This document shows positions 3,934 to 62,738 of a DNA stretch of 64,000 nucleotides, piece by piece. The notes beneath the pieces are model-generated. The model worked only from the letters and a program-made list of their open reading frames with translations. It made no database searches and had not been told where the DNA came from. The stretch is from a virus. Where the stretch lies: IMG/VR virus record IMGVR_UViG_3300014946_000127. One strand, written 5' to 3'. A program made the position numbers and the translations under genes. The first letter of the stretch is position 1. Every line of letters starts with the position of its first letter.

Positions 3934-6900
3934 TTACTCTCCTCCTTTCTTTTGTAATTCGGCTATTTCTTGTTTCAGTTTCTCAATTTCATTTTTCATC
4001 GACTGGACCAGACGGGCTGTCTCCTGAGTCGCACCGGCGATGGTGTTGATATAGTCGGTCGACAGGTAGTTCAGAGCCCCGTAACCGTCCTCCGTTTTGT
4101 AGGCCATCGATGGCAATACCTCTTTCACCTTTTGGTATAACAGCCCCGTATGGGCTTCCCCGTCCACACCGCCCTTGTTACGCTTCCGTGCTTTTTCGGT
4201 GTATCGAAAATCGCACACCCTGCCCATCGCCAAGAGGCGGTCGGTATAACTTCGGGTATAGTCGAAATCTCGCTTCAAACGTCTGTCCGAAGTCGTTAGA
4301 GCGGTGACCGAGCCTTGTGCCGAAATATTGCCTTGCGACGATATATCCCCTCCGGCCGTGATGTTACCGTCCGATGTGACACTCTCCTTTGACCTTATGT
4401 TATTCGTCGCCACAATCCTTCCGGCGGAGATGGAGACAGACTTACTCCCGGTCGAAAGGTTTATACTCGTAGCCCTGATTACATTCGCTCCATCGATGTC
4501 TCCCTCCATCGTTATATCCCGGACTCCCGACAGACTTCCGGACACATCGTTCGATCCGTCAAACGGATTTCCCCAAATCGTCCGGATATTTTTAAGCCTG
4601 TCGGCGGCGATGGAATCGTTATCCGTCAAGGCGACAGACGGGGTCACCACGGTCAGCTTGCTCACGCCGACTGCCGGCATGGGAGACAACGATATACTAT
4701 CCACACAGTTCTCGCAAGTCCCGTTCAAAGCCCCGTATGTGTTATAGACGAATATGGAGCAGGTCTGGTAATCGGTCTTGGCCGAAACCCAAAAGCACAC
4801 GTGTCCCCCGTACAAGAACACCTTCACGTCACCCAAATCGTCACCGAAATGCGTACCGGCCGTAGCCGTAAACTCGACATCGTTCGGGGCATAATTATAC
4901 GCCTGTACGATCGTATTGATAATTCGTCGGCTATAATATCCATTTCCGATCAGATGCAACGTCAACATAGCCGCCTCGGCCTCTTCGACTTTCGTGCGAA
5001 TCAACCACCCGTTTCCGGTGGCTGTCTCATACATGCCGCCCCTCTTATACAGGAAAGCCCCGTTGTCAAGTCCGTTCAACTTTTTCGCATTGTCCGATTC
5101 GACCGCACGTCCGACTGTCAGCCCCGTATATGTACCGCTCACGTTGTTTATCTCGGCCAGCGAATAGGTAGGCTTGTTCGGCTGCTGCACCCAATCGTAC
5201 AGGGTTATGCCTTTGGTGACAACGATACCGAGGGCTGTCTTGCTGACCGCCGTCACCACATTGCCTGTACCTATCGTAGATGCGCCGGCGTTGGCGAGTT
5301 TCCAAATCTCGTTGATGGCGTAGGCGTTGAAAGTCTCCGTCATCGTGGTGTTGTCGAACACGCCGCCCAGATCGTCGAACCCATGAACGAGCTTGATGAG
5401 CCCTCCTTCGCCACCGCCACCCCCTTCTCCACGCCATACACCAAGAGCGGATATTCCACCCTGTGAATACACATTAAATTTCGAGTATATCGTATTTTCC
5501 AACTCTGTGTCGAATTTCCACATATCGTTAATACGGGCAAATCCTTCCTGCATTTGTTTTACAGTCCGTTGATACGATTGTTGCAGGGAAGCCGTCATAT
5601 CATTGATGGCAGAAATCAAGTCGATATTCTTATTGGCAGATGCAACCTCTTCTTTCAGTTCTTGCGTATTCCCTTTTATTAGGTTGTTCCCGATGGTAAT
5701 AGTCTGTTCGCAAGGATAGTCGAGTTTGGTTGTAAGGCTTATAACACGAGTAACATATGAATATCCTGCGTTTATGTATTCGACTTTTCTTCCTATGGAT
5801 AAATCAGGATTGTTTTCATCGAACACCACAGGATTAGATGAAAACTGGTAGTTGTTTTGGTCGGAAGAAAGCCGTTCTATTTCTTCGTTCATAGCTGTTT
5901 CCAGCCGTATGTACGCCGAATCTGTATATTCTTCCGGCATTTTGACGTTGAATAGGATAATATCGTCATTTTCCGACGGTATAAGTCCCGTAATAGCAGG
6001 GATAATATAGTTACCTTCTTCCTCTTTATATTTAATCTCGAAATCTCCTTTTTTGACTTCGAAGCTTATGCCATCATCACTCGTTATTGTTTTACTCTCA
6101 TCATGGTATATAAGCTCAAATTCCATACCTTGCAAAGCCCCCGATTGGAAATGTACCGAAGGTTCCTTATTTGGTATACGCATACCATTCGGATTTTTTT
6201 CTTCGTCATAAGGGGAATTGTCGAAGTTAAATTCCGGTATTTGAAAATACCATATCGCATATTGGTCGTATATAGGGTCTCCATTTTCATCTGTGCCTAT
6301 CTGTATTTTATCATTCGTTTCCGAGTCTATACGCCACATAAGGCGGAATCTGACATCTGATATGGAGAGTTCCGATGAAGGGTATATATCATCGAACAGG
6401 AGGATTTTGCTAAATATCTCTCCCTGTTGAAGGTTTGGCCTTATATCTTTATATCCGTTCGGATATTTTTTAGGGTCAAGAGTCAGCCGTTTGTTGACCA
6501 AATTGTTGACATTAGCACCTTTGTATTCCTGTACGATGTTTCGAGTTGACCCGAATGCGTAAAATCGGGTATAATACCCATCTTTTCCCTCCGTAACCGA
6601 AGGTGTATTGATGTTTTCACCAACTTCGAGAGAAACAACAGCTCCATGTTCGGATTTCGACAGATGAATAATCATGGAATCTTTCTCAACCCACCATTCT
6701 GTCTCAAACGCAGAGGCTATACTGTTCAAGGCAGACAATATGTCGATTGATTGGAAAGACAAAGAAGTGGAAGCGTTAAGAGAAGAATCGACGGCGTAAG
6801 TCCATGTATCCCCGGTTTCGTTCTCGATAGCCTTACAAATAACACTCATGAAATTGGCCGGGTTATCGGTAAGAGACCAATCCGGCTCCCGATTAGTTAT

Positions 6901-7227
6901 CTCGTTATTCTCATCGTAAGAATACATGAAAAAAGGCACTTTACCCCATGATATAAATTTCGAATGAAATTGTGGTTTGTATTGAAATTCGACCTCGTTC
7001 TTTTGTTTTGGATTATATGGCTCCAAAAGAGAATATTTCTCACCATCGAGTATAATATAAGCCCCTACCGGAATCTCTTCATTTTGGTCCGAGTTCCACG
7101 ACAATTCTACATAATCGGATTTCATCAATTCCTCTACATGAACACATTCTTCTGTTATAGGAACTGATAAAATAGTATCTCCTTGTATGTTTTTAATGTC
7201 TATCATGATGGTTTCGTATATCTTCAT
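3934..7227 (-). CDS. Tail fibre / tailspike protein with C-terminal intramolecular chaperone auto-processing domain (peptidase S74-like)
   Basis: 1097 aa. C-terminus SDRRLKRDFDYT...LNYLSTDYINTIAGATQE...EIEKLKQEIAELQKK matches the endosialidase-type chaperone signature (S-D-R-R-L-K) plus a coiled coil. Contains a Gly-run (GEGGGGGEGG). Confidence 0.7.
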   Translation of the reverse strand: MKIYETIMIDIKNIQGDTILSVPITEECVHVEELMKSDYVELSWNSDQNEEIPVGAYIILDGEKYSLLEPYNPKQKNEVEFQYKPQFHSKFISWGKVPFFMYSYDENNEITNREPDWSLTDNPANFMSVICKAIENETGDTWTYAVDSSLNASTSLSFQSIDILSALNSIASAFETEWWVEKDSMIIHLSKSEHGAVVSLEVGENINTPSVTEGKDGYYTRFYAFGSTRNIVQEYKGANVNNLVNKRLTLDPKKYPNGYKDIRPNLQQGEIFSKILLFDDIYPSSELSISDVRFRLMWRIDSETNDKIQIGTDENGDPIYDQYAIWYFQIPEFNFDNSPYDEEKNPNGMRIPNKEPSVHFQSGALQGMEFELIYHDESKTITSDDGISFEVKKGDFEIKYKEEEGNYIIPAITGLIPSENDDIILFNVKMPEEYTDSAYIRLETAMNEEIERLSSDQNNYQFSSNPVVFDENNPDLSIGRKVEYINAGYSYVTRVISLTTKLDYPCEQTITIGNNLIKGNTQELKEEVASANKNIDLISAINDMTASLQQSYQRTVKQMQEGFARINDMWKFDTELENTIYSKFNVYSQGGISALGVWRGEGGGGGEGGLIKLVHGFDDLGGVFDNTTMTETFNAYAINEIWKLANAGASTIGTGNVVTAVSKTALGIVVTKGITLYDWVQQPNKPTYSLAEINNVSGTYTGLTVGRAVESDNAKKLNGLDNGAFLYKRGGMYETATGNGWLIRTKVEEAEAAMLTLHLIGNGYYSRRIINTIVQAYNYAPNDVEFTATAGTHFGDDLGDVKVFLYGGHVCFWVSAKTDYQTCSIFVYNTYGALNGTCENCVDSISLSPMPAVGVSKLTVVTPSVALTDNDSIAADRLKNIRTIWGNPFDGSNDVSGSLSGVRDITMEGDIDGANVIRATSINLSTGSKSVSISAGRIVATNNIRSKESVTSDGNITAGGDISSQGNISAQGSVTALTTSDRRLKRDFDYTRSYTDRLLAMGRVCDFRYTEKARKRNKGGVDGEAHTGLLYQKVKEVLPSMAYKTEDGYGALNYLSTDYINTIAGATQETARLVQSMKNEIEKLKQEIAELQKKGGE

Positions 7228-7275
7228 ACGATTTCAGTCAAAGATAATAAAAGTGCATGAAAAACATGTACTTTT

Positions 7276-7695
7276 TTATGAATTTCTATCTGCTGGATTA
7301 TATTCGACAAGTTTTAGAGAAAATCGTGCTATTCCTCTCATGAATTGCGTAAATTGATTGCATGAAATATAGATTGTTTTGTAAGTAATATTTGGTTGAT
7401 ACTTTGTTTTTATATTTATTATGCCTGTTGCCAATTCTTCACAAAAGTTGTTGTATCTTGAAAAGAATTCTTCTTCCGTTTTTGCCGTCAGGTTAAAAGT
7501 TAAAGTGATATTTCGTTCATCGATTTTAGGATTAGAGGACAGGACTCGTTTGCCATGTTCTAATCGAGACTTGTTTTCGATGAACTCTTTTAAAGGTGAC
7601 GGTGTCATTAAGGAGGAAAGAGATGATGTATCCATACTTATACCCCAAGTTGTATAGCAGTCTTTCCCATTTATGTAAAACTCTCCCGATGCCAT
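7276..7695 (-). CDS. Hypothetical protein (between tape measure and fibre)
   Basis: 139-aa ORF. Confidence 0.5.
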   Translation of the reverse strand: MASGEFYINGKDCYTTWGISMDTSSLSSLMTPSPLKEFIENKSRLEHGKRVLSSNPKIDERNITLTFNLTAKTEEEFFSRYNNFCEELATGIINIKTKYQPNITYKTIYISCNQFTQFMRGIARFSLKLVEYNPADRNS

Positions 7696-8124: not shown

Positions 8125-11100
8125 CTATAAATCTTTAGTATTCCTATTGACTTGTGCTATATCGGATTTTATATCAATTAATAATTTCGTATATTTTGCA
8201 ATGTCTTCTAAGTAGCTATTCGTAATCACATGTTGATTAAGAATGTTATTTAGTATAGAATTGCTATTAGTTGATACAGATAAAAGAGAATTTAGAGAGA
8301 TTACGGCTGAAATCATTTGATTTTTGATTTCTTCACCAGAAAGCTGCAACGCTGTAAACCGGCCGTTTAATTCCGTTGCTGTATCTTGTGACATGGTTTC
8401 AAAACCTTCGGCTGTCGACTTTTGTTCGGTGGTAGAACTTTCTCCCATGAGACTATCAGCCCAACCGAATTGAGCATCTATTTCTTGTTGAAGCTGTTCA
8501 GCCATGTTGTTGATGTAATCTTGTTCCCATTGAGAAAGCACGTTGTCGGCATAAAATTGTTGCAACTTAGTGCGTATTTCCTCCATTTTATTTGAGGATT
8601 TAATTGCTGCCTTAATGCTCTCTGTTACCATTTGTTGCATCATCTGCTTTACAACATCTTTTGCAGATTTAGCCCTATTCTCGCCAGAAGCCCATGCATC
8701 TGCATAAGCTTCTGCAAAGTTGTCAATAGCACTTTTTAGGTCTTCACCAAATATGACATCGATAGCTTTTTCTTTGTTATCAGAAATGAGATTGTTTATT
8801 TCGTCAATTTGATTTTCCCATTCTTTTATTCTGTCGCTATCTGTATTCTTTTTATCTTGTTCTTCTTTAATTTGATTTTGAATAAGTACTTTTTGTTGTT
8901 CTAGCAATTTATTTTGGTCTTCAATCAAGCTGGAAGCACTCTTTCCGTAAGCAGTTTCAATGGACTTGCCTAACTTTTCATACGAACGGTCAAGTGTATC
9001 TACCTGATCTTGTAATTTCTGAATCCGTTTTTCATTTTTTGCGTCGTGGATTTTTGCGATAGAGGAAGCAAGAGAGGAGACAAGACCGATGGCAGCACCA
9101 GCAGCAGAACCTATCGGTCCAAATATAGCACCTGCCTCTGCTCCTTGCATAGCTGAATTGAGGCCGTCCATAGCCACATTGATACCTTCGGCAATGCCTG
9201 ACAGTGTATCAGATCCGAAAGCCTCTCCGAGATTTGAAAATGTGTCGGAAAGGAATTGGGCTACACTTAATACCTCACTTAATCCACTTCTTATTTCTTC
9301 AAGTCCATCTTGCAATTTTTTTGTATTTGAACCGGCATCGAATACTTTTTTAAGACCATTAGCTAGTTTGTTAAACCCCGTTTCAGATTGATCTGCGGAA
9401 TTACGGACATTATCTATACCTTTTCTAATTCGTTCTAATTCTTCGGGAGATTTACGCAATGTGTCGAAGGTCTCTTTTGTCATACCAAATTCAAGACCTT
9501 TGTTTTCGTCCCATTCGCCTGATTGCAAGAATTGGAATGCTCGTTCAGCTTCATTAGCAATGAGACGCATATCTGCAACTGTGTGTTGACGCATATCGTC
9601 AAACAATTTACTTATGGCAGACGTAGATTTATTCGCCTCTATATCCAAATCAGATAGTGCCCTTTTTGTTTCTTCGTCAATAGACTTCTGTTCCCATTCG
9701 TTTTTGCCTACCTTACGAGATTCGCCTTGCTCAATAATAGCATTACGCTTTTCATAATAGTTCCCGTAAGCGGCAAGATAATCGTTCATTGCGTTAATTT
9801 CATCATCGAGAATTTCTTTGGTCTGTTTATTCTTATTCTTTTCATTTAACCTATTTGCGGTATCAATATTTTCCTGTTGTTCAGTTGTTAGTCCATTCTC
9901 ATTAAGCTTGGAGGGTTCAATCTTAGCTACTTTGTTTAACTCGGCCAGCTCTTTCTCTTTCTTTTTAATTTCTTTTTTCTGTTCTTCATAATAGTATTTA
10001 ATTTGCTTCAATTTCTTATCTTTGCCTTCTTCCCAGAGGGAGATTTCTTTCTCTTGATTTTTTTTACGAAGCTCAAGAAGTTCATCAACAAGTTTCTGCT
10101 CGGCCTCTTTTTGCTCTTTTGCTTGCTTATCTTCAGCCGCTTTATCAGATTTGGTTTTAGGCAGCTTTGCACGGAGTGCGTCAATTCGTGATTGTAACGC
10201 ATTGTATTCCTTGCTTCCACTTACAGTTTCTCCTTGCTCTTTCTCTAATTTTGAGATTTGTGTTTTGACTTCATTGATTACTCTCAAATCTTTCTCACGT
10301 TCAAGTACAGTGTCTTGAAGCGACTTGATATAAGCTTCTTGTTGATCCACTGCTTCTTTTGTTCCGCTACCGTCTGCAAGAGCCTTTTTTAATGATGCAA
10401 GTGAGGTTTCAGCCTTCTTGATTTCTTCTTCAAGTTGGGAGATGGATTTACCTTCTGTTGTAAAAATATTTTCAGTAGGTGAATCAAATGAGGGTTCGGG
10501 AATGAAATATTTGTTTCTGTATTCTTCTAAATTTTTATTTCTTATTTCAGCTTGTCGCCTTATTTCAAATAGAAGTGTATTTGCAGATTCTCTCCACTCT
10601 CCCACATCCCACCACTCCCCAATAGATACATCATTAAAAATCCTTTGAATTTCTGTCGGTATATCTCGACCGCTATCCAGCCAGTTTAACCAATTTCGGT
10701 AGACTTTTAATCCAGACTCATCTCCATATTTTTTTGTAAATGCATCATATACTTTTGTTAAGTTTTTTTCTCTGACGCTATTGTATATATCTTCTTCTTG
10801 TTTGGCAAAATTGGTATAATTTTGTGCGGCCATAGATTTACGTATGGCTTTTTCTAATTTTTCATATTGTCCAGCAAGAGACCCTGTTTTATCAATTTCT
10901 TCATCAATGCCAGAAAGATACTTTGAATAGCCATTTACTATTTTTTCTTTTATAGCATACCATTCTTCAGACCATTTTTTAGCCTCCGTAAGTTGCCTAT
11001 TAAGTTCCCTTAATGTGGACATTTCATTTAATGCAGCCACTTCGGTTTTACCAAATTCATCGTTCAGCCTTTCCTGTGCCTTTTCTGCTTCTGTTTGATA

Positions 11101-12219
11101 AGTGACTAATTTATAAACACCTAAACCTAGTGCTGCTACTGCCGCTGCTACTGCGACATATGGGTTGGCAAGTAAAGTCTTGTTCAGTGCAGCTTGCGCA
11201 ACTTGCAATAATTTCGTGCGAGTAGCAGCCAAAGCTTCTGCATTTGATAATGTTATTCCTGAAGCTGCTGCAAGACTTTGATTTAATGCGGACTGAGCTA
11301 ATACGGCGGAATATACTTTTTGTAAAGCTGTTATAGTAATCAATGCAGCTTTATACGCTCCGTATGTACCGACCAATTCAATTAGTATTTTTCCTACTTT
11401 TTCATAGTTTTCTATCAAATAAGAGACGCTGGATAATGCATCATTGATAATACCTTCATTCGCTTTACCGATGTCGTTCAACATCATCGAGAAACTATCT
11501 CCTATGTTAGAAATCTGTCCGGTAATGGTTTTGCTTTGTTCTTGCATTAAGTTAAAGAACATACCACCCTCGTTGGTAAGGTTCTGTATGACTTTCTGAA
11601 CCTCTGGAAACCCTATCATACCAGCTTCTACCATTCCTTTGATTTCACTTTCAGCTACTCCAAATTCTTTGGCAAGTTCTTTTATCATTGGAATACCTCG
11701 TCCAGTGAATTGGTTTAGGTCCTGTGTATAAAGTCGACCTTGTGTCATAGTTGTACCATAGAGATATACTAAGTCTCCCAAAGGTTGTGAAAGTCCGGCT
11801 GCAATGTTCCCTAATCGTATAAGAGTCTCGTTAACATCTTCGGCAGAAGTACCGTAAGCCAGTAATTGACGAGCTCCATTGGCAACACCTTGTAGATCGA
11901 ATGGAGTTTTGGCGGCTGTTTCTGTGAGCTGAGCCATAAGGACGTTTGCCTTTTCACTACTTCCAAGCATAGTGGTAAAGGCGACCTCTAATTGTTGAAA
12001 TTCACCTCTTACTTGTATAATATTTTGGATAAGTTCTTTTGCTGTAAAGCCAGCCCCAAAAGCTGCAGCTGCTTTCGTCATTTTGTTGAACATATCTTCT
12101 ATGCCCAATCCATTTTTTTCTATTTCCTTAGAAGTATTGGTTACTCCGGTTTCTACTTCTCGTAGTTTACGAAGAAAATTAGAATTGTCGCCTGTTATAT
12201 CAAAATGAAGTCCGGCCAT
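8125..12219 (-). CDS. Tail tape measure protein
   Basis: 1364 aa. Long coiled-coil, K/E-rich central region; Gly/Ala-rich hydrophobic segments (AAAAFGAGF..., AVAAAVAALGLGVY). Sits between major-tail and fibre genes. Confidence 0.8.
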   Translation of the reverse strand: MAGLHFDITGDNSNFLRKLREVETGVTNTSKEIEKNGLGIEDMFNKMTKAAAAFGAGFTAKELIQNIIQVRGEFQQLEVAFTTMLGSSEKANVLMAQLTETAAKTPFDLQGVANGARQLLAYGTSAEDVNETLIRLGNIAAGLSQPLGDLVYLYGTTMTQGRLYTQDLNQFTGRGIPMIKELAKEFGVAESEIKGMVEAGMIGFPEVQKVIQNLTNEGGMFFNLMQEQSKTITGQISNIGDSFSMMLNDIGKANEGIINDALSSVSYLIENYEKVGKILIELVGTYGAYKAALITITALQKVYSAVLAQSALNQSLAAASGITLSNAEALAATRTKLLQVAQAALNKTLLANPYVAVAAAVAALGLGVYKLVTYQTEAEKAQERLNDEFGKTEVAALNEMSTLRELNRQLTEAKKWSEEWYAIKEKIVNGYSKYLSGIDEEIDKTGSLAGQYEKLEKAIRKSMAAQNYTNFAKQEEDIYNSVREKNLTKVYDAFTKKYGDESGLKVYRNWLNWLDSGRDIPTEIQRIFNDVSIGEWWDVGEWRESANTLLFEIRRQAEIRNKNLEEYRNKYFIPEPSFDSPTENIFTTEGKSISQLEEEIKKAETSLASLKKALADGSGTKEAVDQQEAYIKSLQDTVLEREKDLRVINEVKTQISKLEKEQGETVSGSKEYNALQSRIDALRAKLPKTKSDKAAEDKQAKEQKEAEQKLVDELLELRKKNQEKEISLWEEGKDKKLKQIKYYYEEQKKEIKKKEKELAELNKVAKIEPSKLNENGLTTEQQENIDTANRLNEKNKNKQTKEILDDEINAMNDYLAAYGNYYEKRNAIIEQGESRKVGKNEWEQKSIDEETKRALSDLDIEANKSTSAISKLFDDMRQHTVADMRLIANEAERAFQFLQSGEWDENKGLEFGMTKETFDTLRKSPEELERIRKGIDNVRNSADQSETGFNKLANGLKKVFDAGSNTKKLQDGLEEIRSGLSEVLSVAQFLSDTFSNLGEAFGSDTLSGIAEGINVAMDGLNSAMQGAEAGAIFGPIGSAAGAAIGLVSSLASSIAKIHDAKNEKRIQKLQDQVDTLDRSYEKLGKSIETAYGKSASSLIEDQNKLLEQQKVLIQNQIKEEQDKKNTDSDRIKEWENQIDEINNLISDNKEKAIDVIFGEDLKSAIDNFAEAYADAWASGENRAKSAKDVVKQMMQQMVTESIKAAIKSSNKMEEIRTKLQQFYADNVLSQWEQDYINNMAEQLQQEIDAQFGWADSLMGESSTTEQKSTAEGFETMSQDTATELNGRFTALQLSGEEIKNQMISAVISLNSLLSVSTNSNSILNNILNQHVITNSYLEDIAKYTKLLIDIKSDIAQVNRNTKDL

Positions 12220-12263: not shown

Positions 12264-12290
12264 GCAAATATACAAAAGTATATGAAATTC
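12264..12290. promoter_or_regulatory. Palindromic motif copy 1 (AAAAGTATATGAAATTCATATACTTTT), divergent intergenic region between tape measure and the plus-strand moron
   Basis: Near-perfect inverted repeat. Each arm contains TACTTTTG, which fits the Bacteroidetes -7 consensus TAnnTTTG, pointing outward. One of five copies. Confidence 0.45.
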
Positions 12291-12409
12291 ATATACTTTT
12301 GATAAAATAGAATAGAGTTAATAAAGTTTAACTAATGTATGAGTATAAATATTTTAATAAATGATTATTGTATTATACTTTTGACGAAACAATCTTAACA
12401 GCATAAGAT

Positions 12410-13570
12410 ATGGATTTCAAAGATACAATTCAACAGATTGTAGAGAAAATTGCTAAACAGAAGGATAGCATAGCAACGGAAGAAGCGACAAAAACCTCTT
12501 TTGTAATGCCTGTGATAGCAGCATTGGGATATGATGTATTCAATCCCTTTGAGGTTGTACCGGAAATGGATTGTGACTTAGTTAAGAGGAAAGGCGAAAA
12601 AATAGACTATGCCATAATGAAGGACGAAAATCCTATACTACTTATAGAATGCAAGCATTGTAAACAAAACTTGAATTTACATGACACTCAGTTACAAAGA
12701 TATTTTGTCGCTTCAAAGGCTAGGTTTGGGGTCTTGACGAATGGAATAGAATATCGCTTTTATACAGATTTAGAAAAGGTGAACATAATGGACGAAAAGC
12801 CGTTCCTTGTGGTGAATATGCTCGATTTATCGGACAACGATATTGAGCAACTGAAAAAGTTTCATAAGTCTTATTATAATGAGCAAGATATATTGAGTAC
12901 GGCACAAGAGTTACAAATCACGATACAAGTAAAAGAAATGCTTAATCGTAATTTCCAAATGCCGGATGATGAATTTACACGTTATTTTGTCCGTAATCTT
13001 AATGATGGGAAATATACGGCAAAACTTGTGGACCAATATAGACCTATTGTTAAGAAATCCATTGCTTCGGTGATTAACGATATTATATCCGACCGTTTGA
13101 ATGTGGCTATGAAGAATGAGAATAAGGAGGAAAAGCAAATGCCACAGGGGGGTGAGAATGAAAATCAACAGCCGAACGAAATGAATGAAGAAAAACTTCC
13201 CGATGGTGTAGTATTTCAAGACCGAGAAAAAGGTATAGTTACTACACAAGAGGAGATAGATGCCTATAACATCGTGCGTAGTATATTGAGGCAGTATGTA
13301 GATGTATCTCGTATTCAATATAACGACTACAAGACTTATTTTTCCGTGAACATAGATGGTAGTACATGGTGGTGGATTTGCCGCATTTATATAGGGAAAC
13401 GGAGTAAAAAAATATGCTTGCCAAAGGATAACTACAAGACAAATGAATGGATTGACATTGAGACTATCGATGATATTTTTAATTATGCCGATGGTCTTAA
13501 AGAGGGTCTTGATTTGGCATTGAAAGAGGCGAATTATTGGCTTGCAAAGAAAAATGAATTAGAAAAATGA
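12410..13570 (+). CDS. HsdR-N-terminal-domain-like (PD-(D/E)xK, Mrr-cat-type) restriction-endonuclease-like protein
   Basis: 386 aa. N-terminus GYDVFNPFEVVPEMDCDLVKRKGEKIDYAIMKDENPILLIECK...GVLTNGIEYRFY matches the HSDR_N family (D...E-C-K catalytic arrangement). Plus-strand insert inside the minus-strand tail module. Confidence 0.6.
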   Translation: MDFKDTIQQIVEKIAKQKDSIATEEATKTSFVMPVIAALGYDVFNPFEVVPEMDCDLVKRKGEKIDYAIMKDENPILLIECKHCKQNLNLHDTQLQRYFVASKARFGVLTNGIEYRFYTDLEKVNIMDEKPFLVVNMLDLSDNDIEQLKKFHKSYYNEQDILSTAQELQITIQVKEMLNRNFQMPDDEFTRYFVRNLNDGKYTAKLVDQYRPIVKKSIASVINDIISDRLNVAMKNENKEEKQMPQGGENENQQPNEMNEEKLPDGVVFQDREKGIVTTQEEIDAYNIVRSILRQYVDVSRIQYNDYKTYFSVNIDGSTWWWICRIYIGKRSKKICLPKDNYKTNEWIDIETIDDIFNYADGLKEGLDLALKEANYWLAKKNELEK

Positions 13571-14061
13571 CAAACGTAACTAATACAAATTTTAGAATTA
13601 TGAGAAAGTTTTTGCTAATCATAGTTTGTGCTTTATCCATTACATCTTGCTCAGATAATGATCCTGAGATATTATCAGTAATGATTAATGTAAAATGTGA
13701 TAATAAAATTGCATCTCCTTCTTTGGTTCGCTTATATGAATATGAAACAGCAAGAGACTTTGATGACAGCTATATGTCTACAATGGAGTACGGCGATTCT
13801 CAAGTTTTAAGAGATAAGTTGGGTAATGAGTTGACTCCCGCATATACATCTGACACGTTTTCTGGAATAAATATTTTTGAGGACATAAAAACAGGGGTAT
13901 ATTTGGCTGTAATACTTTATAAACCTGACGGCTTTACATGGCCTATGTTTTATTTTTATGGATATAAAGTAATTAATGTTGACGAGGATAATAACGCACT
14001 TTTACATAATATATGTTTTTCTTATAGTGAATACGACCGAGGTAAATTCATTGAGTTTTAG
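13567..14061 (+). CDS. Lipoprotein (signal peptide + lipobox)
   Basis: 164 aa. MRKFLLIIVCALSITSC: hydrophobic h-region then lipobox Cys. Start overlaps the stop of the upstream gene. Confidence 0.6.
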   Translation: MTNVTNTNFRIMRKFLLIIVCALSITSCSDNDPEILSVMINVKCDNKIASPSLVRLYEYETARDFDDSYMSTMEYGDSQVLRDKLGNELTPAYTSDTFSGINIFEDIKTGVYLAVILYKPDGFTWPMFYFYGYKVINVDEDNNALLHNICFSYSEYDRGKFIEF

Positions 14062-17034: not shown

Positions 17035-18345
17035 TTAACTATCTCCATTTGTTGTTTTATATGATTCAACAGCTTTTTTGAGCTTAGCTTCATCGGCATC
17101 ATTCAATTTGTTTACAGCAGCAATTAACTTATCGTCTGAAATAGTAGTCGATAAGTTTTTACCGGTTATTTTATTGAACTCTGCGACGAAGTTTGCTTTT
17201 ATGTAAGCTTGTCCCCAAATGGTGATGTTCTTATCGGTAGAATCTTTTCCCTCTTCGGTAGTGTCAATCGTTTGAGCCTCTGAGATGTCAAGAGAGTAGA
17301 TTTGGTCTACGTTTTCAATAACAGGGAGAACTAATGCTTGACCACTTGTAAATTCCTGCAAAGGATCATTTTTAGAATACTTGCTGATAAGTTTGTATTC
17401 ATCTACCGTGGAATAAATTACTCCTGCTACGGGATTAGTAACTTCTGCAAGTGTGCCCCAAACCAATGCGCCAACTTCTTGTGTAGTAAGGAATATTAGT
17501 TTGTTCGCATTCCACGGTTTGTACGGAATGCGTTTACCATTTTTCTCAGAAATTACTGTACGGTCAATCTTTAAGAATGTAATTCCGTTGTTGTCATCGG
17601 CAAATGCTTCGTCAAATAATGTAGCAGTAGGAACAGGTAACTTAGTGTTGCTGTCGAATGTCTGACCTCGATAGTTGGCAACCAATTCTTTTGCCCATTG
17701 TTCTTGTCTCATTTTATTGTAAGTCGATAACGAGATTGCTATCGTTGTAATTGAGTTTCCATCTGCGTCAGCTTTTGCAATAACACGCTTTATGTCATCA
17801 GAGGAAATAGTTCCAGCTGTTTCTACACCAAAGCTATTTTGCGGTAAATAGTTGAAATTTATGCGCAATCCAGTTCCTGTATTGTTTTCATCTTCAACGA
17901 TTACAACTCCATCAGATAAAGCAGTTAAAAAGTTTGCTTCGTTCTTTTCATCGATACCAACAGAGCAAGCTACCGCATCGTTGGTTAGCTTGTTAGCTAT
18001 ATTAGTGAACGCAGCTCCTTGAGCTTTCATGATGTTGATTGTGTTGATCTGAGTCTCACGAAGAATTTTTTTCATTCCGACCTTTGGCAATGTACCATTT
18101 GCGTGAGCAATGGAGTCTCTCATCTTAGGAGGGAGAGGTGAGTCCATTGCTACCATGTCGGCCGCAACATAAGTTGTGTTAACTGATGCACTTTCCCACT
18201 TTTGGTCTGCGGAATATTCTTTGCGAAGCATTGTCTTGTGAAGATATGTAAGCTGATTGCCTCGCTTACCATTGATTCTCTCGATGATGGTTTGAAGTTT
18301 CGGGAAAATCTTTCTGATGTATTCAATAAATAGTGATTCTTTCAT
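17035..18345 (-). CDS. Major capsid protein candidate
   Basis: 436 aa. Located after the scaffold-like gene and a small head gene. Confidence 0.5.
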   Translation of the reverse strand: MKESLFIEYIRKIFPKLQTIIERINGKRGNQLTYLHKTMLRKEYSADQKWESASVNTTYVAADMVAMDSPLPPKMRDSIAHANGTLPKVGMKKILRETQINTINIMKAQGAAFTNIANKLTNDAVACSVGIDEKNEANFLTALSDGVVIVEDENNTGTGLRINFNYLPQNSFGVETAGTISSDDIKRVIAKADADGNSITTIAISLSTYNKMRQEQWAKELVANYRGQTFDSNTKLPVPTATLFDEAFADDNNGITFLKIDRTVISEKNGKRIPYKPWNANKLIFLTTQEVGALVWGTLAEVTNPVAGVIYSTVDEYKLISKYSKNDPLQEFTSGQALVLPVIENVDQIYSLDISEAQTIDTTEEGKDSTDKNITIWGQAYIKANFVAEFNKITGKNLSTTISDDKLIAAVNKLNDADEAKLKKAVESYKTTNGDS

Positions 18346-18787: not shown

Positions 18788-19561
18788 TTAGAAAGTGTTG
18801 ACTAAATCTTCAACTTCTTTGTCGGTTAATACTTCGTCTTGTTTACCCGAACCTTTACTTCCGGCAGCAGGAGGGGTTGCCAATGTTGCCAAACCTGCAT
18901 CTGCACGCTCTTGATTGTAATTCTTCAGGTCTTCCTCAACATCTGAATAGAACTCCTCGAAATCGTCGTCACTTTCAAAGTTCATCTTAGAGAAGCTTTT
19001 CAAGGTACGTGAACCGAATGTTCCAGTGTCTTTCAGCAGGGCTTCAAGTTTGGCTTTACGCAAGTTAGAAACTTTTTCACCTTCCAATGCTGCAAAACGG
19101 GCTTCCTGTTGCTCTCTGAAAGACTTAAACCATGCGGGTTCTTCGTCTTGTTCATTTCCTTTGTTGTTGGGATTTTTCTTGTTTGAACCAGCTGGACGAG
19201 AGCCGCCTTTTGACGTGTCATCGTCAACGTCGTCATCATCATCTTCTTCTGATTCGGGGTGTTTTTTCTTCCATTCGTCAAGCAAACGGTTGGCTTGCGA
19301 CTGGCCGAAAGTGAGGTAAGGGAGAACCGCTTCTATCTGCTCGTCGATTTCTGCGTTTACATCCTCTTCTGAGGCATCTTCTGCGGATTTCAGGTTATCG
19401 GCAATCTTGGCGGCGATACCCTTCAATTCCTTTGCGTTGAACCCTAACGCCTTCGCTTTAAGTTTCAACCTTACGAAAACTTGCTGTTGTCTGTTCATTT
19501 CATTTAGGTTTAAACAAAAAAAATAGTCTGCGTAGCAATGTAGCCAGCAGACTATTCGCAT
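18788..19561 (-). CDS. Scaffolding protein candidate
   Basis: 257 aa, highly charged, predicted coiled coil, poly-acidic tract EEDDDDDVDDD. Confidence 0.5.
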   Translation of the reverse strand: MRIVCWLHCYADYFFCLNLNEMNRQQQVFVRLKLKAKALGFNAKELKGIAAKIADNLKSAEDASEEDVNAEIDEQIEAVLPYLTFGQSQANRLLDEWKKKHPESEEDDDDDVDDDTSKGGSRPAGSNKKNPNNKGNEQDEEPAWFKSFREQQEARFAALEGEKVSNLRKAKLEALLKDTGTFGSRTLKSFSKMNFESDDDFEEFYSDVEEDLKNYNQERADAGLATLATPPAAGSKGSGKQDEVLTDKEVEDLVNTF

Positions 19562-19656
19562 CTTCTTTCAGATGTGCCTCCGCCTAAACGGACAAACAGG
19601 TGTTTACGACAAGTCGGGTGGCGTACATCTTCATACGCTTTTTGCAAATATACAGT

Positions 19657-19682
19657 AAAGTATATGAATTTCATACACTTTT
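19657..19682. promoter_or_regulatory. Palindromic motif copy 2 upstream of the scaffold/capsid operon
   Basis: ttgcaaatatacagtAAAGTATATGAATTTCATACACTTTT; shares the upstream TTGCAAATATACA with copies 1 and 5. Confidence 0.45.
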
Positions 19683-20415: not shown

Positions 20416-20772
20416 TTAAAGATGAGTATATAAGCCTGTCACTTGTGTGAACACTTCTTGCAACTGTTCAGCATAAATATCACTCGAAAAGAAGACCTCT
20501 TTGGCCTCGGAAAAAGAAAAAGTCTTTTTGTTTAATTTCGGGGATTTGATGAATCTCATAGAATAAGTATCCTTACCTTCTTCATAAGTAATAATTAATT
20601 TATCTGCGCCAGATTTATTTTTGCTCAATTTAATAACCTGCTCTAGGTCACCAGATTCATTCTCCATGTAACCAGTAAATTTTGATCCTGTCATAACTAC
20701 AAATCTATGTCTGCCAAGTTGTTCGTATAAGGCTAACATTATTTCTTTTATTTGTTCTTCTGAATGTTTCAT
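20416..20772 (-). CDS. Hypothetical protein
   Basis: 118-aa ORF. Its 5' leader is part of the repeated promoter cassette. Confidence 0.45.
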   Translation of the reverse strand: MKHSEEQIKEIMLALYEQLGRHRFVVMTGSKFTGYMENESGDLEQVIKLSKNKSGADKLIITYEEGKDTYSMRFIKSPKLNKKTFSFSEAKEVFFSSDIYAEQLQEVFTQVTGLYTHL

Positions 20773-21135
20773 TACTCTTATGTGTTATATAGGGGCTTTC
20801 GCCCTATCGGTTAAACTTAGAATTTTTCAATATTTAGATTACTATTAATTATAAATATGCGTCCACATTCACATATCACATGTGTGTCGGTAATGCGTGT
20901 TATTTTTCGCACTACATCATCGTGCGTTACATAATTCCCATTTTGTAAATCACCCGAAATTCTGTATCTCAAACCTACCATTATTTCTGTTACTTTCATC
21001 GTTTTTATCTTTTAATTGTTAGTAATATTGATTTGTTTTAGTATTGTAAAGATACTCATTATCAGTGAGTTAATCAAATATTTACAGCCTTATTTTGCTC
21101 ATAATCAAGAGTTTAACTTTTGGTAACTTGGATAT
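20755..21135. repeat. Dispersed repeat copy A (~380 bp): promoter + 60-aa gene + hairpin + leader of the next gene
   Basis: Over 90% identical to 32705..33075. The promoter-proximal ~130 bp recurs a third time at 44640..44770. Confidence 0.7.
20817..20999 (-). CDS. Small duplicated protein (60 aa), copy 1
   Basis: MKVTEIMVGLRYRISGDLQNGNYVTHDDVVRKITRITDTHVICECGRIFIINSNLNIEKF. Copy 2 at 32766..32948 differs by one residue (I vs R). Confidence 0.5.
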   Translation of the reverse strand: MKVTEIMVGLRYRISGDLQNGNYVTHDDVVRKITRITDTHVICECGRIFIINSNLNIEKF

Positions 21136-21249
21136 TGTAATATCAAAAACGCCGACTTTCACAAGCCGGCGTACATAAGAGCAATGAAAACTGCAATTAT
21201 TAATAAATAATAAGACAGTCTTCGATGCAAAGATAGAGGTTTATAGCGA

Positions 21250-22761
21250 TCATAAAAAGTCTTTTAGTAATTCTTCGTCACTAATAAAATCATAGTCAAA
21301 TGGATAAAATGTATTAGCAAGTGCATCCATATAGTCTGGCGAACGTTTGATACGTTTCTTGATTTCTTCTTTCGGTTCAATTATAATCCGTCCATCGCTT
21401 TGGAACTTCCAGTGTGTTTCGGTTGCTTCCTCCATGAGTTTGTCACAAGGGGGAATAGCCGCCCCAAAACCGTTCTTAGGGTTAAGCCAATCACGTAAAG
21501 ACCAATAGCAGTAAGCTCGCATATTGGCAAATTCATATTGTCCGGTAAGGTCATGCAAGCCTTTTGCACTCTCGGAATACTTGCAAGAATAAACATTCCT
21601 ATATCCGAGTTCTTCCAGTCGGGAATATACTCCAGCTCCTTCACCTATTGTATCGATGTACGCTTTGGATTTTTTGTCAGAAAGATATATGATGTGCATT
21701 CCTGCGACATGCATGTGATCCGCTTTTCCAGCAGATTGGTGAACTTCAAATTTAGGGACATAGTTTCCGTATCGAGGGCAAAGTACACTTTCATCTCGTC
21801 CCATACCTGCTACGTCAGAACCGAGTTTGCAGGACTTGACCGGTTTGAACCCATCTTCTTGTAGGCGTTTCCAATTCTCGTTGGCAATCTCTATCCATTC
21901 GTAGGGTATAAGGACATCTTCCGACACCTTTGGGAACATGCCCAGCACCTTGACACGGAAAAGGTCATTAGGGCGGTATAAACCCCCTTCCCACTTAAAA
22001 TCACCTTCTCCTTCATTAAAATCTGCTTTCTGAATGGGAGAACACCAATTTATCACTTTATCTTTAACCCATTCATAATCGACTTGACCGGGAATGACTA
22101 ATTTCTTTTTGACTACATTCTCTGCATTGAGTGAGTTTAACCGGAATTTCGCAAATCGATTGGATTTCATGGCTCGTGCGGCATAACCCGTAGTTATGTT
22201 AGGATTAAACACGATGAGTAAACGGGAATTTCCCTGTAAGTTACCTTCAATAGCATTGTATGTTGCTTCTGAAATACCCGATGCTTCAGTAACGACGAAC
22301 ATTGTATTCACAGCGTGGAACCCAGACCATGCTTCAGTATTGTCATCACCGGCCTTAAACCCCGTCAGGAACCATTCTTCATAATCAGTCTTTATACCCG
22401 AAGACAACAATCTTCCCGGAAGAAAAACTGCATTTCTGTACAAGCGTGAGATTTCCGGGATCATAATATTCTGTACCTGCCTTGCTGTTGGTGCAGTCAT
22501 GGCAATTTTTGTATTCTTGGATAATTTGCCATCTTTCCAACGTGGAGTGAGGTACATAAAACACATAGCAGCACATGCTGCAACGAAGTCCTTACCACGA
22601 GCTGTACCTGATGCAACAGCTGTCATAGGATTGTGCTGGACAGAGGATATGATAGATTGCTGCTCGCTGTCTAAACGAACCTTCAAAACATCACGGCAAA
22701 ACCTATTCCAGTCTTCTATCCATGACTTTAAGTAGCGTATGTCCTTGCGTACATGGCTCAT
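21250..22761 (-). CDS. terL: Terminase large subunit
   Basis: 503 aa. Walker A-like VASGTARGKDF, Walker B-like MFVVTEASGI. C-terminal nuclease region carries the acidic motifs GSDVAGMGRDESV and IDTIGEGAGV typical of the TerL RNase-H-like domain. Confidence 0.8.
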   Translation of the reverse strand: MSHVRKDIRYLKSWIEDWNRFCRDVLKVRLDSEQQSIISSVQHNPMTAVASGTARGKDFVAACAAMCFMYLTPRWKDGKLSKNTKIAMTAPTARQVQNIMIPEISRLYRNAVFLPGRLLSSGIKTDYEEWFLTGFKAGDDNTEAWSGFHAVNTMFVVTEASGISEATYNAIEGNLQGNSRLLIVFNPNITTGYAARAMKSNRFAKFRLNSLNAENVVKKKLVIPGQVDYEWVKDKVINWCSPIQKADFNEGEGDFKWEGGLYRPNDLFRVKVLGMFPKVSEDVLIPYEWIEIANENWKRLQEDGFKPVKSCKLGSDVAGMGRDESVLCPRYGNYVPKFEVHQSAGKADHMHVAGMHIIYLSDKKSKAYIDTIGEGAGVYSRLEELGYRNVYSCKYSESAKGLHDLTGQYEFANMRAYCYWSLRDWLNPKNGFGAAIPPCDKLMEEATETHWKFQSDGRIIIEPKEEIKKRIKRSPDYMDALANTFYPFDYDFISDEELLKDFL

Positions 22762-23123
22762 TCCTCATCATCAGGCAATTCTTGCATCAGTTTCTCAAAT
22801 GGATTGACAGTAACCTCCTGTTCCAGCCTCTCAACATATCCTCTCTCTCGCATTTTGGTCTTACTAAGCCAAATGAGCATTGTGTTGTCTTGTTCTGTCA
22901 AAGCCTTTGAGAACATAACAGTTTCTAATTTATCTTTGAACGCTTCTTCTACTTCCTCCCATTGCTTCCTAAACTCTTCATCTTTCTCTTTCCACTTGTA
23001 TGCAATGGAACGAGATATTCCGGCTGCCTCACACGCTTTCGTAACGTTAAGCAGTCTTGCATCAAGTGCATTCAGAAAAATCTCTTTCTTTTTCTTTACA
23101 GGAATCCTAAACTTCTGTCCCAT
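22758..23123 (-). CDS. terS: Terminase small subunit candidate (HTH)
   Basis: 121 aa directly upstream of and overlapping TerL. N-terminal HTH-like KEIFLNALDARLLNVTKACEAAGISRSIAYKWKEKD. Confidence 0.55.
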   Translation of the reverse strand: MGQKFRIPVKKKKEIFLNALDARLLNVTKACEAAGISRSIAYKWKEKDEEFRKQWEEVEEAFKDKLETVMFSKALTEQDNTMLIWLSKTKMRERGYVERLEQEVTVNPFEKLMQELPDDEE

Positions 23124-27640: not shown

Positions 27641-27862
27641 ATTCTTGGGTTGTATATAACTTCATATACATTTTGTGTTAAATCTGCCGAGCGTATTCCC
27701 GGCAGACTTAAACACAAATTCAATCATTCTTCAAGCTACTTACAAGAACACTTATGCAATTCTTCGGCTTCTTTCAGTCGTGTCAGATAGCAATTTCTAT
27801 CACCCCGTAAACTGCACAAGCTTTAATGTTCTTGCTTTTGCTTATCGCTACTATAAGGGTTG

Positions 27863-29389: not shown

Positions 29390-29420
29390 TTTTTTGTTCT
29401 TTTTACGGTGTAAATATATA

Positions 29421-29447
29421 AAAAGTATATGAAATTCATGCACTTTT
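29421..29447. promoter_or_regulatory. Palindromic motif copy 3
   Basis: AAAAGTATATGAAATTCATGCACTTTT immediately upstream of the DUF488-like gene start. Confidence 0.45.
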
Positions 29448-32080: not shown

Positions 32081-32722
32081 TTACCCCCATAATTTTACTG
32101 CAAGATCATAATTCTTTTGAGCTTCATTTACTGCTTTTTTGGCATAAGTAAGAGTGTAGGCGTGTTCACGTGGATATTTGCCTGACTTTACACCTTCATG
32201 ATATTCTTTGGCTTCTTCCAGCTTGTGCGCATAAAAGTCAATACTTTCCGGCATAGATAGGTTGATGGTTGTAGCACGCTTGTCCCAGTATTCGGCTTCT
32301 CTTTCATGTTCTGTTGCTTTGTCGCTAAATTCAACGCTTTTACCCATGTTTCTCCAAGCATCCGCTATTGCTTTTCTGTGTCGTCTTTCGCTATGATGTC
32401 CTACTTTAATAGGTTCTCCAAGTGAAAGAAAATCTCTGTCCTTATTTGACTTTTCGAAATATCCATGACTTTTTTTATTTGCTGATACAGACCATTCACG
32501 TCTACGTTCGGCTCTACGTTTTGCCCATTCTTGTACGTTGAATCCGTCAGCCCTTACGATGGAGTAATAATAGAATCCGTCACGCTCAAATATCAGATTA
32601 AAAACGATACTTTCATTCTCTTTTCCATACTTGGTGGTGACTGTGATTTCTTCTCCTTTTTCGTGCTTCTCATCGCACTTTGCCAAAAATACGTTTGGCG
32701 CAAACTTGTAATATGTGTTCAT
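32081..32722 (-). CDS. Hypothetical protein (basic, His/Arg-rich central region)
   Basis: 213 aa. Its leader is part of repeat copy B. Confidence 0.45.
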   Translation of the reverse strand: MNTYYKFAPNVFLAKCDEKHEKGEEITVTTKYGKENESIVFNLIFERDGFYYYSIVRADGFNVQEWAKRRAERRREWSVSANKKSHGYFEKSNKDRDFLSLGEPIKVGHHSERRHRKAIADAWRNMGKSVEFSDKATEHEREAEYWDKRATTINLSMPESIDFYAHKLEEAKEYHEGVKSGKYPREHAYTLTYAKKAVNEAQKNYDLAVKLWG

Positions 32723-33075
32723 TGCTCTTATGTGTTATATAGGGCTTTCGCCCTGTCGGTTAAACTTAGAATTTTTCAATATTTAGATTACTATTAATTA
32801 TAAATCTGCGACCACATTCGCATATCACATGTGTATCGGTAATACGTGTTATTTTTCGCACTACATCATCGTGCGTTACATAATTCCCATTTTGTAAATC
32901 ACCCGAAATTCTGTATCTCAAACCTACCATTATTTCTGTTACTTTCATCGTTCTTGTCTTTTAATTGTTAGTAATGTTGTTTGTTTTAGTATTGTAAAGA
33001 TACTCATTATCAGAGAGTTATCCAAATATTTACAACCTTATTTTACTCATAATCAAGAGTTTAACTTTTGGTAAC
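32705..33075. repeat. Dispersed repeat copy B (~370 bp)
   Basis: See copy A. Includes the -33 TTTG / -7 TATCTTTA-like promoter on the minus strand and the hairpin TAGGGCTTTCGCCCTA. Confidence 0.7.
32766..32948 (-). CDS. Small duplicated protein (60 aa), copy 2
   Basis: 99% identical to the 20817..20999 product. Confidence 0.5.
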   Translation of the reverse strand: MKVTEIMVGLRYRISGDLQNGNYVTHDDVVRKITRITDTHVICECGRRFIINSNLNIEKF

Positions 33076-33222
33076 TTGAAATGAAATATGAATGAAATGG
33101 AGTATCACGGACAATAGGTTTAATCTATTGGTTTTTATTAAAGTGACCCGGCTTTTGTTTCCACAGTGATATAGCCGGGCCACCGCTCTTGTTGTTTTGG
33201 AAGAGCACGTGTATTTGGTGTA

Positions 33223-33510
33223 TTAATCTCCACAATAACGCCCGCTTTGGTTTCTGTAATACTCTATTATACCTCTTTCCATTGCTGAGTCGAATACAAC
33301 CGATTCGGGCTTTTGTGCGGATTCCAACTTTCTCATTAACCGGCGGGCTTCTTTTTCGGCTTTGCGGGCTTCCGCTTTCATCTTAAACCATGCGTTCCTC
33401 AAACAAGCACTGAATGACTGGCAGAACTCACGGCCGAGAACCGAGATAGAGCGTTTATACATTGACCATGCCATTTTGAAAAGTTGCGATTTGTCGATTT
33501 TCGTTTTCAT
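33223..33510 (-). CDS. Hypothetical basic protein
   Basis: 95-aa ORF. Confidence 0.4.
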   Translation of the reverse strand: MKTKIDKSQLFKMAWSMYKRSISVLGREFCQSFSACLRNAWFKMKAEARKAEKEARRLMRKLESAQKPESVVFDSAMERGIIEYYRNQSGRYCGD

Positions 33511-37391: not shown

Positions 37392-37414
37392 GAAAGTGTA
37401 TGAATTTCATACAT
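37392..37414. promoter_or_regulatory. Palindromic motif copy 4
   Basis: GAAAGTGTATGAATTTCATACAT upstream of the antirepressor gene. Confidence 0.4.
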
Positions 37415-37655
37415 AATTCAATATTATTAACCTTTGAGGGCTATTATACGATTTCCTAAGGCAGTGAATCCTAAGGCGAAATTCCGTTTAATGCAAAATT
37501 ACAATATTCACAAATAATGAAGTGCACCACCAGAAAACGTAAAAAGAAAGCGATGAAAAATTAATCTCACCGCTTTTTATATGCCTCAAAATAGACGTGT
37601 GTAAACAAATGCCAAATTAGAGTTGTACAAACATCAATTCTTTAAATCAAAGGAA

Positions 37656-42827: not shown

Positions 42828-42856
42828 GTTTCGTATTACTTCATACGATTTTTTTT

Positions 42857-42883
42857 CAAAAATAGCAAAAGTGTATGAATTTC
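42857..42883. promoter_or_regulatory. Palindromic motif copy 5 upstream of the portal gene
   Basis: ttttcaaaaatagcAAAAGTGTATGAATTTCATATACTTTT. Confidence 0.45.
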
Positions 42884-43082
42884 ATATACTTTTAAGACTA
42901 AATTTGTTTAATTTACTATATTCGCCTGTTTTAGTGTTTTCCAGCATTCTCCGTTGAGCGGCAAATTTGATACAGATACAGTAATATCGCTGACACTCCT
43001 TTCAGGTAGCAAGATTTAAGAAATGAAATATATTTCTTAAACTCTACTGTGAGAGAATCAGCGATATTTACTGCCTTTATTG

Positions 43083-44186: not shown

Positions 44187-44473
44187 AATCGTGTTTTCAT
44201 GACATTATTAGTAATTTTGTTACCTGTACTATCAAATACTTCTATAGTTGGTCTACCTCCGTTATCAATAGGAGAAATAGCCTCTGATGTTTCATATAAA
44301 GTTTCTCCGTCTGTAACCATTATCTGCTTGTCATCTTCAAAACAAAGTACATCTTCACCTTCCCATGATTTTATTATTTCTAACGCTTCTTTATAACTTT
44401 CTGCTTCGATAGAAAACTGGGTACGCTCCCAACATGTTACTTTGCGGTCCTGATAAAAATCAAATGTTTTCAT
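44183..44473 (-). CDS. Hypothetical protein
   Basis: 96-aa ORF; leader resembles the repeated cassette leader. Confidence 0.4.
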   Translation of the reverse strand: MKTFDFYQDRKVTCWERTQFSIEAESYKEALEIIKSWEGEDVLCFEDDKQIMVTDGETLYETSEAISPIDNGGRPTIEVFDSTGNKITNNVMKTRL

Positions 44474-47214: not shown

Positions 47215-47251
47215 AATACAACAATGTTAACTAAACTATTAAAAGAGTTAA

Positions 47252-62640: not shown

Positions 62641-62738
62641 TATATTTGTAATGTTTAATTGGTTTGGTATTGCAAATATAATAATATTATAGTAAAACTA
62701 TACTACTATTATAGTTAATAATTATAAAATGATATACT

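Follow-up and report, generated by a model that had tools for sequence, protein, structure and literature searches.

A 27-bp palindrome (dyad) occurs in five full copies in the window, the whole 64,000-nucleotide stretch of DNA analysed here. The copies lie at non-random positions at the heads of operons, each is followed at a near-fixed spacing by a Bacteroidetes -7 box, this frame of palindrome and box is conserved in diverged relatives, and the mismatches between the arms show no strand-specific pairing. That a protein binds the dyad, which protein this is and whether it activates or represses are our inferences; in our preferred reading, to which we give about an even chance, the dyad is a protein-bound promoter operator that acts positively at late promoters.

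The dyad recurs at the heads of late operons

The window covers most of a temperate siphovirus-like prophage, with nearly all genes on the minus strand. The gene for the CI-like repressor faces the early operon, in which a cro-like gene is followed by the gene for a LuxR/GerE-type regulator (Table 1). Past the early operon, the order is replication and accessory genes; portal and MuF; a cargo block (Bro-N/ANT, Fic, DUF488, YopX and two tRNAs); a terS-like gene and TerL (21250-22761); scaffold-like, major head and head-tail genes; a plus-strand HSDR_N island; the tape measure gene (8125-12219); tail genes; and the gene for a 1090-aa tail-fibre-like protein.

Several other features of the gene map are of note. 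The plus-strand island (12410-14061), consisting of a gene for an HSDR_N-domain endonuclease-like protein and a 164-aa gene, interrupts the late genes beside the dyad at 12274 and is possibly a lysogeny-expressed moron or defence gene. The terS-like and TerL genes (21250-23123) are flanked here by the MuF block and the scaffold operon; in the 75% lineage (L218, 1-4000) the order is ParB-like, terS, TerL, small genes, dyad promoter and portal, i.e. terS/TerL are directly upstream of the portal gene. A cassette of approximately 340 nt is present three times (20760-21130, 32710-33080 and 44460-44760; 79-96% identical, the third partial); it contains a 60-aa ORF and a short GC hairpin, and lies directly 5' of small minus-strand genes (118-aa, DUF3560 and 96-aa). 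Finally, four tandem copies of a 78-nt unit (58699-59088; 70-76% identical) in the early/replication region could be iterons or encode a repetitive protein.

We scanned the window for the dyad consensus AAAAGTRYATG-AAWTT-CATRYACTTTT (27 nt), allowing up to three mismatches. Five full copies were recovered, all on the sense side of minus-strand operons; by contrast, the degenerate 27-mer had no match in 100 dinucleotide-preserving shuffles. Thus, the palindrome, which had been described from the sequence alone, is real and far beyond chance. On the sense (minus) strand the full copies have the form AAAAGTRYATG-(AAATT, AATTT or TTTTT)-CATRYACTTTT. A looser frame scan of the 64 kb gave no full copy beyond the five, and weak look-alikes at 44935 and 63455 were rejected as dyad sites. 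The core AGTRYATG-N5-CATRYACT additionally recovered 37395-37415 with two mismatches; this decayed copy, upstream of a 72-aa gene and the gene for the Bro-N/ANT antirepressor, is probably the relic of a mosaic junction.

The sequence-only reading had also listed five copies. Two of these, 12264 and 42857, were shifted by 10 nt and included the flanking -7 box, the real starts being 12274 and 42867; the copies at 19656 and 29421 stand, the one at 37392 is the degenerate copy, and the good copy at 7249 had been missed. Its assignments of the sites to the tape measure, scaffold/major head, DUF488, Bro-N/ANT and portal/MuF operons are correct.

Table 1. Positions of the dyads, -7 boxes, leader hairpins and regulatory genes in the window
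Feature	Positions	Strand	Sequence	Remarks
-7 box	7239-7246	minus	TATCTTTG	2 nt past dyad
Dyad	7249-7275		AAAAGTACATG-TTTTT-CATGCACTTTT (sense; loop AAAAA on listed strand)	Heads tail-fibre-like gene (1090-aa); abuts stop codon of tail gene 7276-7695
-7 box	12265-12272	minus	TATATTTG	1 nt past dyad
Dyad	12274-12300		perfect palindrome	Heads tape-measure operon (8125-12219); in divergent intergenic region adjoining plus-strand HSDR_N endonuclease island
-7 box	19645-19652	minus	TATATTTG	3 nt past dyad
Dyad	19656-19682			Heads scaffold-like/major head operon (18788-19561, 17035-18345 and onward)
-7-like box	29411-29418	minus	TATATTTA	One mismatch; 2 nt past dyad
Dyad	29421-29447			Heads DUF488 gene (true start ~29389), YopX gene and two tRNA genes
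Decayed dyad	37392-37418		GAAAGTGTATGAATTTCATACATAATT	One outer arm missing; no adjacent -7 box
-7 box	42857-42864	minus	TATTTTTG	2 nt past dyad
Dyad	42867-42893			Heads portal (41415-42827) and MuF-like (38675-41311) operon
AAG-loop hairpin	7214-7231	minus	TCGTATGAAGATATACGA	7 nt past -7 box
AAG-loop hairpin	19621-19638	minus	GCGTATGAAGATGTACGC
AAG-loop hairpin	27651-27670	minus
AAG-loop hairpin	42831-42848	minus	TCGTATGAAGTAATACGA	3 nt before portal ATG
LuxR-type gene (candidate binder)	61824-62378	minus		184 aa; C-terminal LuxR/NarL/GerE-type HTH, N-terminal domain with four invariant Cys
cro-like gene	62389-62640			First in early operon
CI-like repressor gene	62739-63497	plus		HTH and S24 peptidase

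A -7 box follows each full copy at a near-fixed distance

The canonical Bacteroides sigma-A promoter consists of a -33 TTTG element and the Bacteroidetes -7 element TAnnTTTG. An exact TAnnTTTG is present 1-3 nt after four of the five full dyads, and a box with one mismatch after the fifth, on the gene side only. Because TAnnTTTG is rare on the minus strand (40 occurrences, 12 of them intergenic), four exact boxes in a 3-nt window at five dyads are far from chance. Measured to the first T of the box, the dyad is centred 15-17 nt upstream, i.e. at approximately -28, and it spans approximately -41 to -15. A -33 TTTG 19-21 nt upstream of the -7 box is absent at all five sites. Thus, every full copy has the same near-consensus -7 box as the canonical promoter, but the left arm of the dyad, which at best supplies TATG/CATG at an 18-nt spacing, stands where the -33 TTTG would.

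These observations bear on two proposals of the sequence-only reading, i.e. that an upstream flank, TTGCAAATATACA, is shared by three copies and that each arm embeds a -7 element, making the site a symmetric promoter. The flank is the reverse complement of the -7 box TATATTTGCAA and is exact at 12274 and 19656, whereas at 42867 the equivalent is TATTTTTG. The embedded TACTTTTG matches the -7 element at 12274 only, and the functional-looking box lies outside the palindrome and on the gene side only, which argues against a symmetric promoter.

On the plus strand, a perfect dyad of a different sequence, GATATTT-N7-AAATATC (47250-47287), lies directly upstream of a plus-strand TATATTTG box in a 479-nt intergenic gap.

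Mismatches between the arms argue for recognition of duplex DNA

Positions 7/8 and 20/21 of the dyad vary between R and Y independently in the two arms; as a result, the sense strand of the copies at 7249, 29421 and 42867 has A.C mismatches. In 65 distinct frames from the window and its relatives, arm positions 5-11 were Watson-Crick in 84% of cases, and the arm mismatches comprised 25 G.T and 18 A.C on the sense strand, i.e. there was no strand bias. The asymmetric loop occurs in both orientations, AAATT and AATTT, and recognition is therefore expected to be symmetric. RNA folding of the dyad copies gave energies between -6.7 and -13.9 kcal/mol; two sites, whose z-scores were -1.1 and -1.5, were no better than shuffles, and the minimum free energy fold of the 29421 copy did not contain the hairpin. 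Because the mismatches lack strand bias, the loop is present in both orientations and folding is weak or absent, these data argue for a dyad that is recognised symmetrically as duplex DNA rather than for an RNA structure.

The same data bear on whether the dyad is a terminator or insulator, or a 3' stabilising hairpin of the preceding unit that overlaps the next promoter through compactness. Such a function would fit the succession of A-tract, stem and T-tract, the two copies that abut the stop codon of the preceding gene, and the 12274 copy, which passes a terminator scan. However, 12274 was the only one of six copies to be flagged, folding energetics are poor, A.C mismatches are as common as G.U on the sense strand, and in GTGAAGT-AAAAA-GAATCAC, the most frequent variant among relatives, no more than 8 A/T-rich bp are paired. 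Moreover, the phage has GC-rich terminators elsewhere, one after TerL detected in the same scan (21149-21172) and a second GC hairpin at approximately 27686-27709. We consider a terminator function very unlikely, and the weak bidirectional terminator that had been suggested from the sequence is not supported.

The frame of dyad and -7 box is kept in diverged relatives

A near-identity search with 50 kb of the window against INPHARED identified no related genome, and an exact-motif scan of GTDB species genomes gave lone chance-like matches (Acinetobacter, Clostridia) and no Bacteroidales prophage. In IMG/VR, the exact motif is present in at least 114 stretches, mostly close relatives from human-gut metagenomes. 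In this lineage, the entire 27-mer including the inner bases is kept at all sites and in more than 100 related contigs. All 50 loci taken via the portal protein (at least 95% identity) carry the dyad upstream of the portal gene, even where the flanks differ; in some of them an inserted gene separates dyad and portal.

In IMG/VR phages with 74-82% portal identity, the frame is AAAAGTG-N13-CACTTTT followed after 2 nt by TATATTTG or TACCTTTG. It recurs at orthologous operon heads (portal, scaffold and tail fibre) with different inner bases, as in AAAAGTGGCAT-AGTGA-ATGTCACTTTT gt TATATTTG, TAAAGTGAAGT-AAAAA-GAATCACTTTT cg TATATTTG and TAAAGTGATTG-TTTCA-ATGTCACTTTT gt TATATTTG. Among the 65 distinct frames, the offset between dyad and box is 2 nt in 43, 3 nt in 12, 1 nt in 8 and 4 nt in 2. 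Several of the relatives' loci were chosen by the portal protein or the downstream leader, independently of the motif, and conservation of the outer AAAGTG/CACTTT arms is therefore not just a selection effect. The conserved features are a dyad, its spacing relative to the -7 box and, for most lineages, the outer arms. The search in related phages that had been proposed for the motif thus found the 27-nt frame and its -7 spacing kept at orthologous operon heads.

Two lineages have another dyad, (A/C)(T/G)GATTG-N5-CAATC(A/G), at the equivalent position. In other lineages, the inner 13 nt vary among the sites of one genome and, therefore, only the outer arms would be readable by one protein. MT836221, a portal relative at 57% identity, has an ordinary promoter without the dyad. 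Bacteroides phage Versailles (ON453897) has its own seven-copy dyad, RTGTGTT-N5-AACRCAT, at 4629, 10765, 17836, 20385, 28489, 33340 and 33455, located just 5' of start codons and with a first spacer base that is always T on the sense strand; one copy is in an equivalent frame before TATATTTG. Separate GGATATAT repeats in Versailles (4545-4575 and 33150-33320) have the look of immunity operators.

Conserved outer A4/T4 tracts with GTG/CAC and drifting inner bases would also be found if the dyad were intrinsic to the promoter and needed no dedicated binding protein. In that case, the arms would serve host RNA polymerase as UP-like and extended -7 elements, or as DNA in a bent or cruciform state, and template-switch mutation between them would maintain the palindromy. 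There are precedents for such elements: the rRNA P1 promoter of B. thetaiotaomicron has AAAGTT...AACTTT upstream of TATATTTG (PMC13634575), and strong constitutive promoters of Bacteroides phages combine UP elements with a -7 box (bioRxiv 10.1101/2025.03.18.644028). However, five strong constitutive virion promoters could not stay silent in a prophage, and an intrinsic element does not fit the retention of the inner bases throughout this lineage. Moreover, the published class of phage promoters has GTTAA repeats upstream, and the pattern GTTAA-N-GTTAA had no match in the window. An intrinsic element is, in our judgement, distinctly unlikely.

When related contigs are compared, as with L163 versus L164, homology often ends precisely at the upstream border of the palindrome, and in the related contig L003 the scaffold copy is joined to the flank that in the window adjoins the 37392 relic. 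Judged from these alignments, the dyad also marks mosaic joints. Together with the scar-like 37392 copy, such breaks might suggest that the dyad is primarily a recombination or module-boundary sequence, in which shared 27-mers promote the exchange of cassettes between phages and sites and any regulation is secondary. This idea leaves unexplained the fixed -7 spacing and a frame that is kept with a different inner sequence; furthermore, no recombinase is linked to the dyad, and break points at promoters are expected of any conserved regulatory sequence. We regard it as the least probable of the explanations considered here.

A covarying hairpin is present in the leaders of late genes

A second, independent leader element is a hairpin with the loop (G)AAGN(Y) and a stem of 7-9 bp upstream of late-gene start codons on the minus strand. 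Three of these hairpins start 6-8 nt past a -7 box, and they end a few nt before the portal, tail-fibre and GNAT-domain start codons. In relatives, the hairpin is retained, with differing stems, in all 15 distinct versions upstream of the portal. Across 19 sequences, 96% of cells pair, with 21 G.U pairs and no A.C, and double changes are present in six of seven pairs; the covariation of 0.83 compares with 0.33 in shuffles (0/500 reached 0.83) and at most 0.24 in slid controls. By this pattern of covariation, the hairpin is a sense-strand RNA structure. The dyad, with its 25 G.U versus 18 A.C in 65 frames, does not show this behaviour, and we rejected it as a structured RNA element.

An Rfam scan of the window returned two tRNAs only and no family for the AAG-loop hairpin, which is a candidate new RNA motif. 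The AAG-type loop recalls lambda nutL boxB. The ORF-derived start of the 1097-aa tail-fibre-like gene, ATG 7227, falls inside the leader hairpin and, therefore, the real start is probably ATG 7206, with a conserved MI(D/S)IK.

Candidate binders and the sign of regulation

Among the three options of the sequence-only reading, i.e. symmetric promoter, operator for a dimeric phage regulator and terminator, the operator fits best. Of the proteins then proposed to bind it, the LuxR-type protein is the best, putative, candidate and the CI-like repressor is unlikely. The latter was rejected as binder in that 62445-62738 contains no dyad (up to three mismatches) and carries TATAGT-N3-ACTATA and ACTATAAT repeats instead, which in the CI/cro intergenic region (62641-62738) are likely immunity operators. 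A ParB-like binder, with parS/KorB-type sites, was also rejected: its gene (43083-43844) is present in approximately 19 of 50 close relatives versus 50 of 50 for the dyad upstream of the portal.

The LuxR-type gene is the second after cro in the early operon, and its probable start is M23 of an ORF that runs to 62444. The protein has nothing sigma-factor-like beyond the region-4-like HTH. The gene order CI, divergent from cro, LuxR-type and a 68-aa gene, is shared by Bacteroides phage Versailles, Flavobacterium phage 6H and metagenomic contigs. Alleles that are 60-70% identical share an unchanged recognition helix, SPHTVKNHIKSVY, and their source contigs carry AAAGTG/CACTTT frames; in Versailles the helix is changed to SLNTVNNHRKNSF, and the dyad is also different. 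This link between protein and dyad is correlative.

Several observations cast doubt on it. In contig 2836880742_000002, the recognition helix is identical, yet the dyad upstream of the portal is another one, AAAAACGATTG-TTATT-CAATCGAAATT, and in Flavobacterium phage 6H, which has a LuxR homologue, a recurrent dyad was not found. The second position of an early operon is an odd place for a late activator, and there is no dyad copy in the vicinity of the gene. Moreover, 16-18 bp separate the centres of the outer arms, a larger distance than NarL-type dimers usually span. We propose the LuxR/NarL-type protein as the binder tentatively and consider this assignment less likely than not.

Based on these data, we suggest a composite late promoter in which the host sigma-A-type -7 box TAnnTTTG would be the core and the dyad the operator half, with the 27-bp dyad at approximately -28 occupying the place of the -33 element. 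A dimeric phage-encoded regulator, most likely the conserved HTH protein of LuxR/NarL type whose gene directly follows cro, would bind the dyad as double-stranded DNA and activate transcription by making up for the absent -33 contact. The portal/MuF, scaffold/capsid, tape measure and distal tail operons and the DUF488-tRNA unit would form one regulon. Given the tight spacing between dyad and box, a factor working together with RNA polymerase is expected. Positive control is favoured because a prophage must silence five virion promoters, its sole lysogeny repressor evidently does not bind them, and they have no -33 element; moreover, the late genes of well-studied phages are positively controlled (PMC10695390).

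The main rival to an activator is a repressor. A protein covering -41 to -15 could occlude otherwise constitutive late promoters in the lysogen or in early infection, comparable to the dispersed C1 operators of P1 or the stoperators of mycobacteriophages. The dyad overlaps the core promoter, a centre at approximately -28 is an equally classic position for a repressor, and the -7 boxes are near consensus (TATATTTGCA). In addition, one dyad of the CI/cro region in this phage is centred at the late-dyad distance from the PR -7 box TATATTTG (62673-62680). However, the control region of the sole recognisable lysogeny repressor lacks the late dyad and contains other repeats. For most lineages the distance between dyad and -7 box is constant to within 1 nt, which would be more usual for a factor contacting RNA polymerase, and positive control is the precedent for phage late genes. 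We consider a repressor operator unlikely, if less so than the other alternatives; as rivals to the activator operator, it is followed by an intrinsic UP-like or bent-DNA element and then by a terminator or insulator.

Going further, the Cys4-LuxR protein and the dyad might constitute a dedicated late switch to which the AAG-loop hairpin adds an RNA layer. In such two-key control, an early-made LuxR-type dimer, possibly redox-, metal- or ligand-sensing, would replace the -33 contact at every virion promoter, and the covarying hairpin, located at the start codon or 5' end of these same transcripts, would gate their stability, antitermination or translation. This combination is speculative, and we think it improbable as a whole.

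Discussion

Almost nothing is known about the timing of virion production in temperate Bacteroidales phages. The dyad, which hundreds of viral contigs from the human gut retain, represents a defined cis element whose regulon is clear and for which there are few candidate regulators. With its help, late operons and module boundaries of such phages could be annotated, and it could serve as a source of phage-inducible promoters for Bacteroides engineering. If two-key control were true, it would be undescribed for any Bacteroidetes phage and would operate in a very abundant family of temperate Bacteroidales phages of the human gut. Searching the literature for the motif or its sequence strings, and for late promoters of Bacteroides phages that are palindromic, gave nothing relevant.

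In P2/186 (Ogr/B), Mu (C/Mor), T4 (MotA) and lambda (cII), activators act at repeated or dyad elements that replace or flank a poor -35 element at dispersed promoters. Ogr binds at -55, Mor/C at -43.5 and MotA as a monomer at -30, while cII recognises direct repeats; cII is encoded right after cro, but its targets are lysogeny promoters rather than virion genes. The positions of these elements differ from that of the dyad, and the protein families are unrelated.

The operators of LuxR/NarL/GerE-type proteins (lux box, tra box, NarL 7-2-7) are palindromes of approximately 18-20 bp that are read by HTH dimers and often overlap the -35 element of activated promoters; similarly, the inner 7-5-7 core of the dyad, GTRYATG-N5-CATRYAC, is of comparable size, and a member of the family is encoded by the phage. 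By contrast, the part of the dyad that is conserved across lineages is the outer arms, 16-18 bp centre to centre, and the phage protein has a Cys4 N-terminal domain instead of a receiver or autoinducer domain; here, the link between site and protein is correlative.

The dyad promoters are analogous to those of late control in phage P1, which head morphogenesis or lysis operons. The Lpa repeat lies at approximately -22 and replaces the -35 element; likewise, the repeat described here has a fixed position in the core promoter, with its centre 15-17 nt before the box, in place of the upstream hexamer. P1 has 11 late promoters, each with an inverted repeat for Lpa, and its late control is positive (PMC10695390). 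The dyad differs from the Lpa repeat in sequence and length (11-bp arms and a 5-bp spacer), the promoter grammar here is that of the Bacteroidetes -7 element TAnnTTTG, and both binding and activation are putative. In both phages, the same inverted repeat is present at dispersed late promoters that head operons, in the case of the dyad as five copies at four virion operons and the DUF488 unit.
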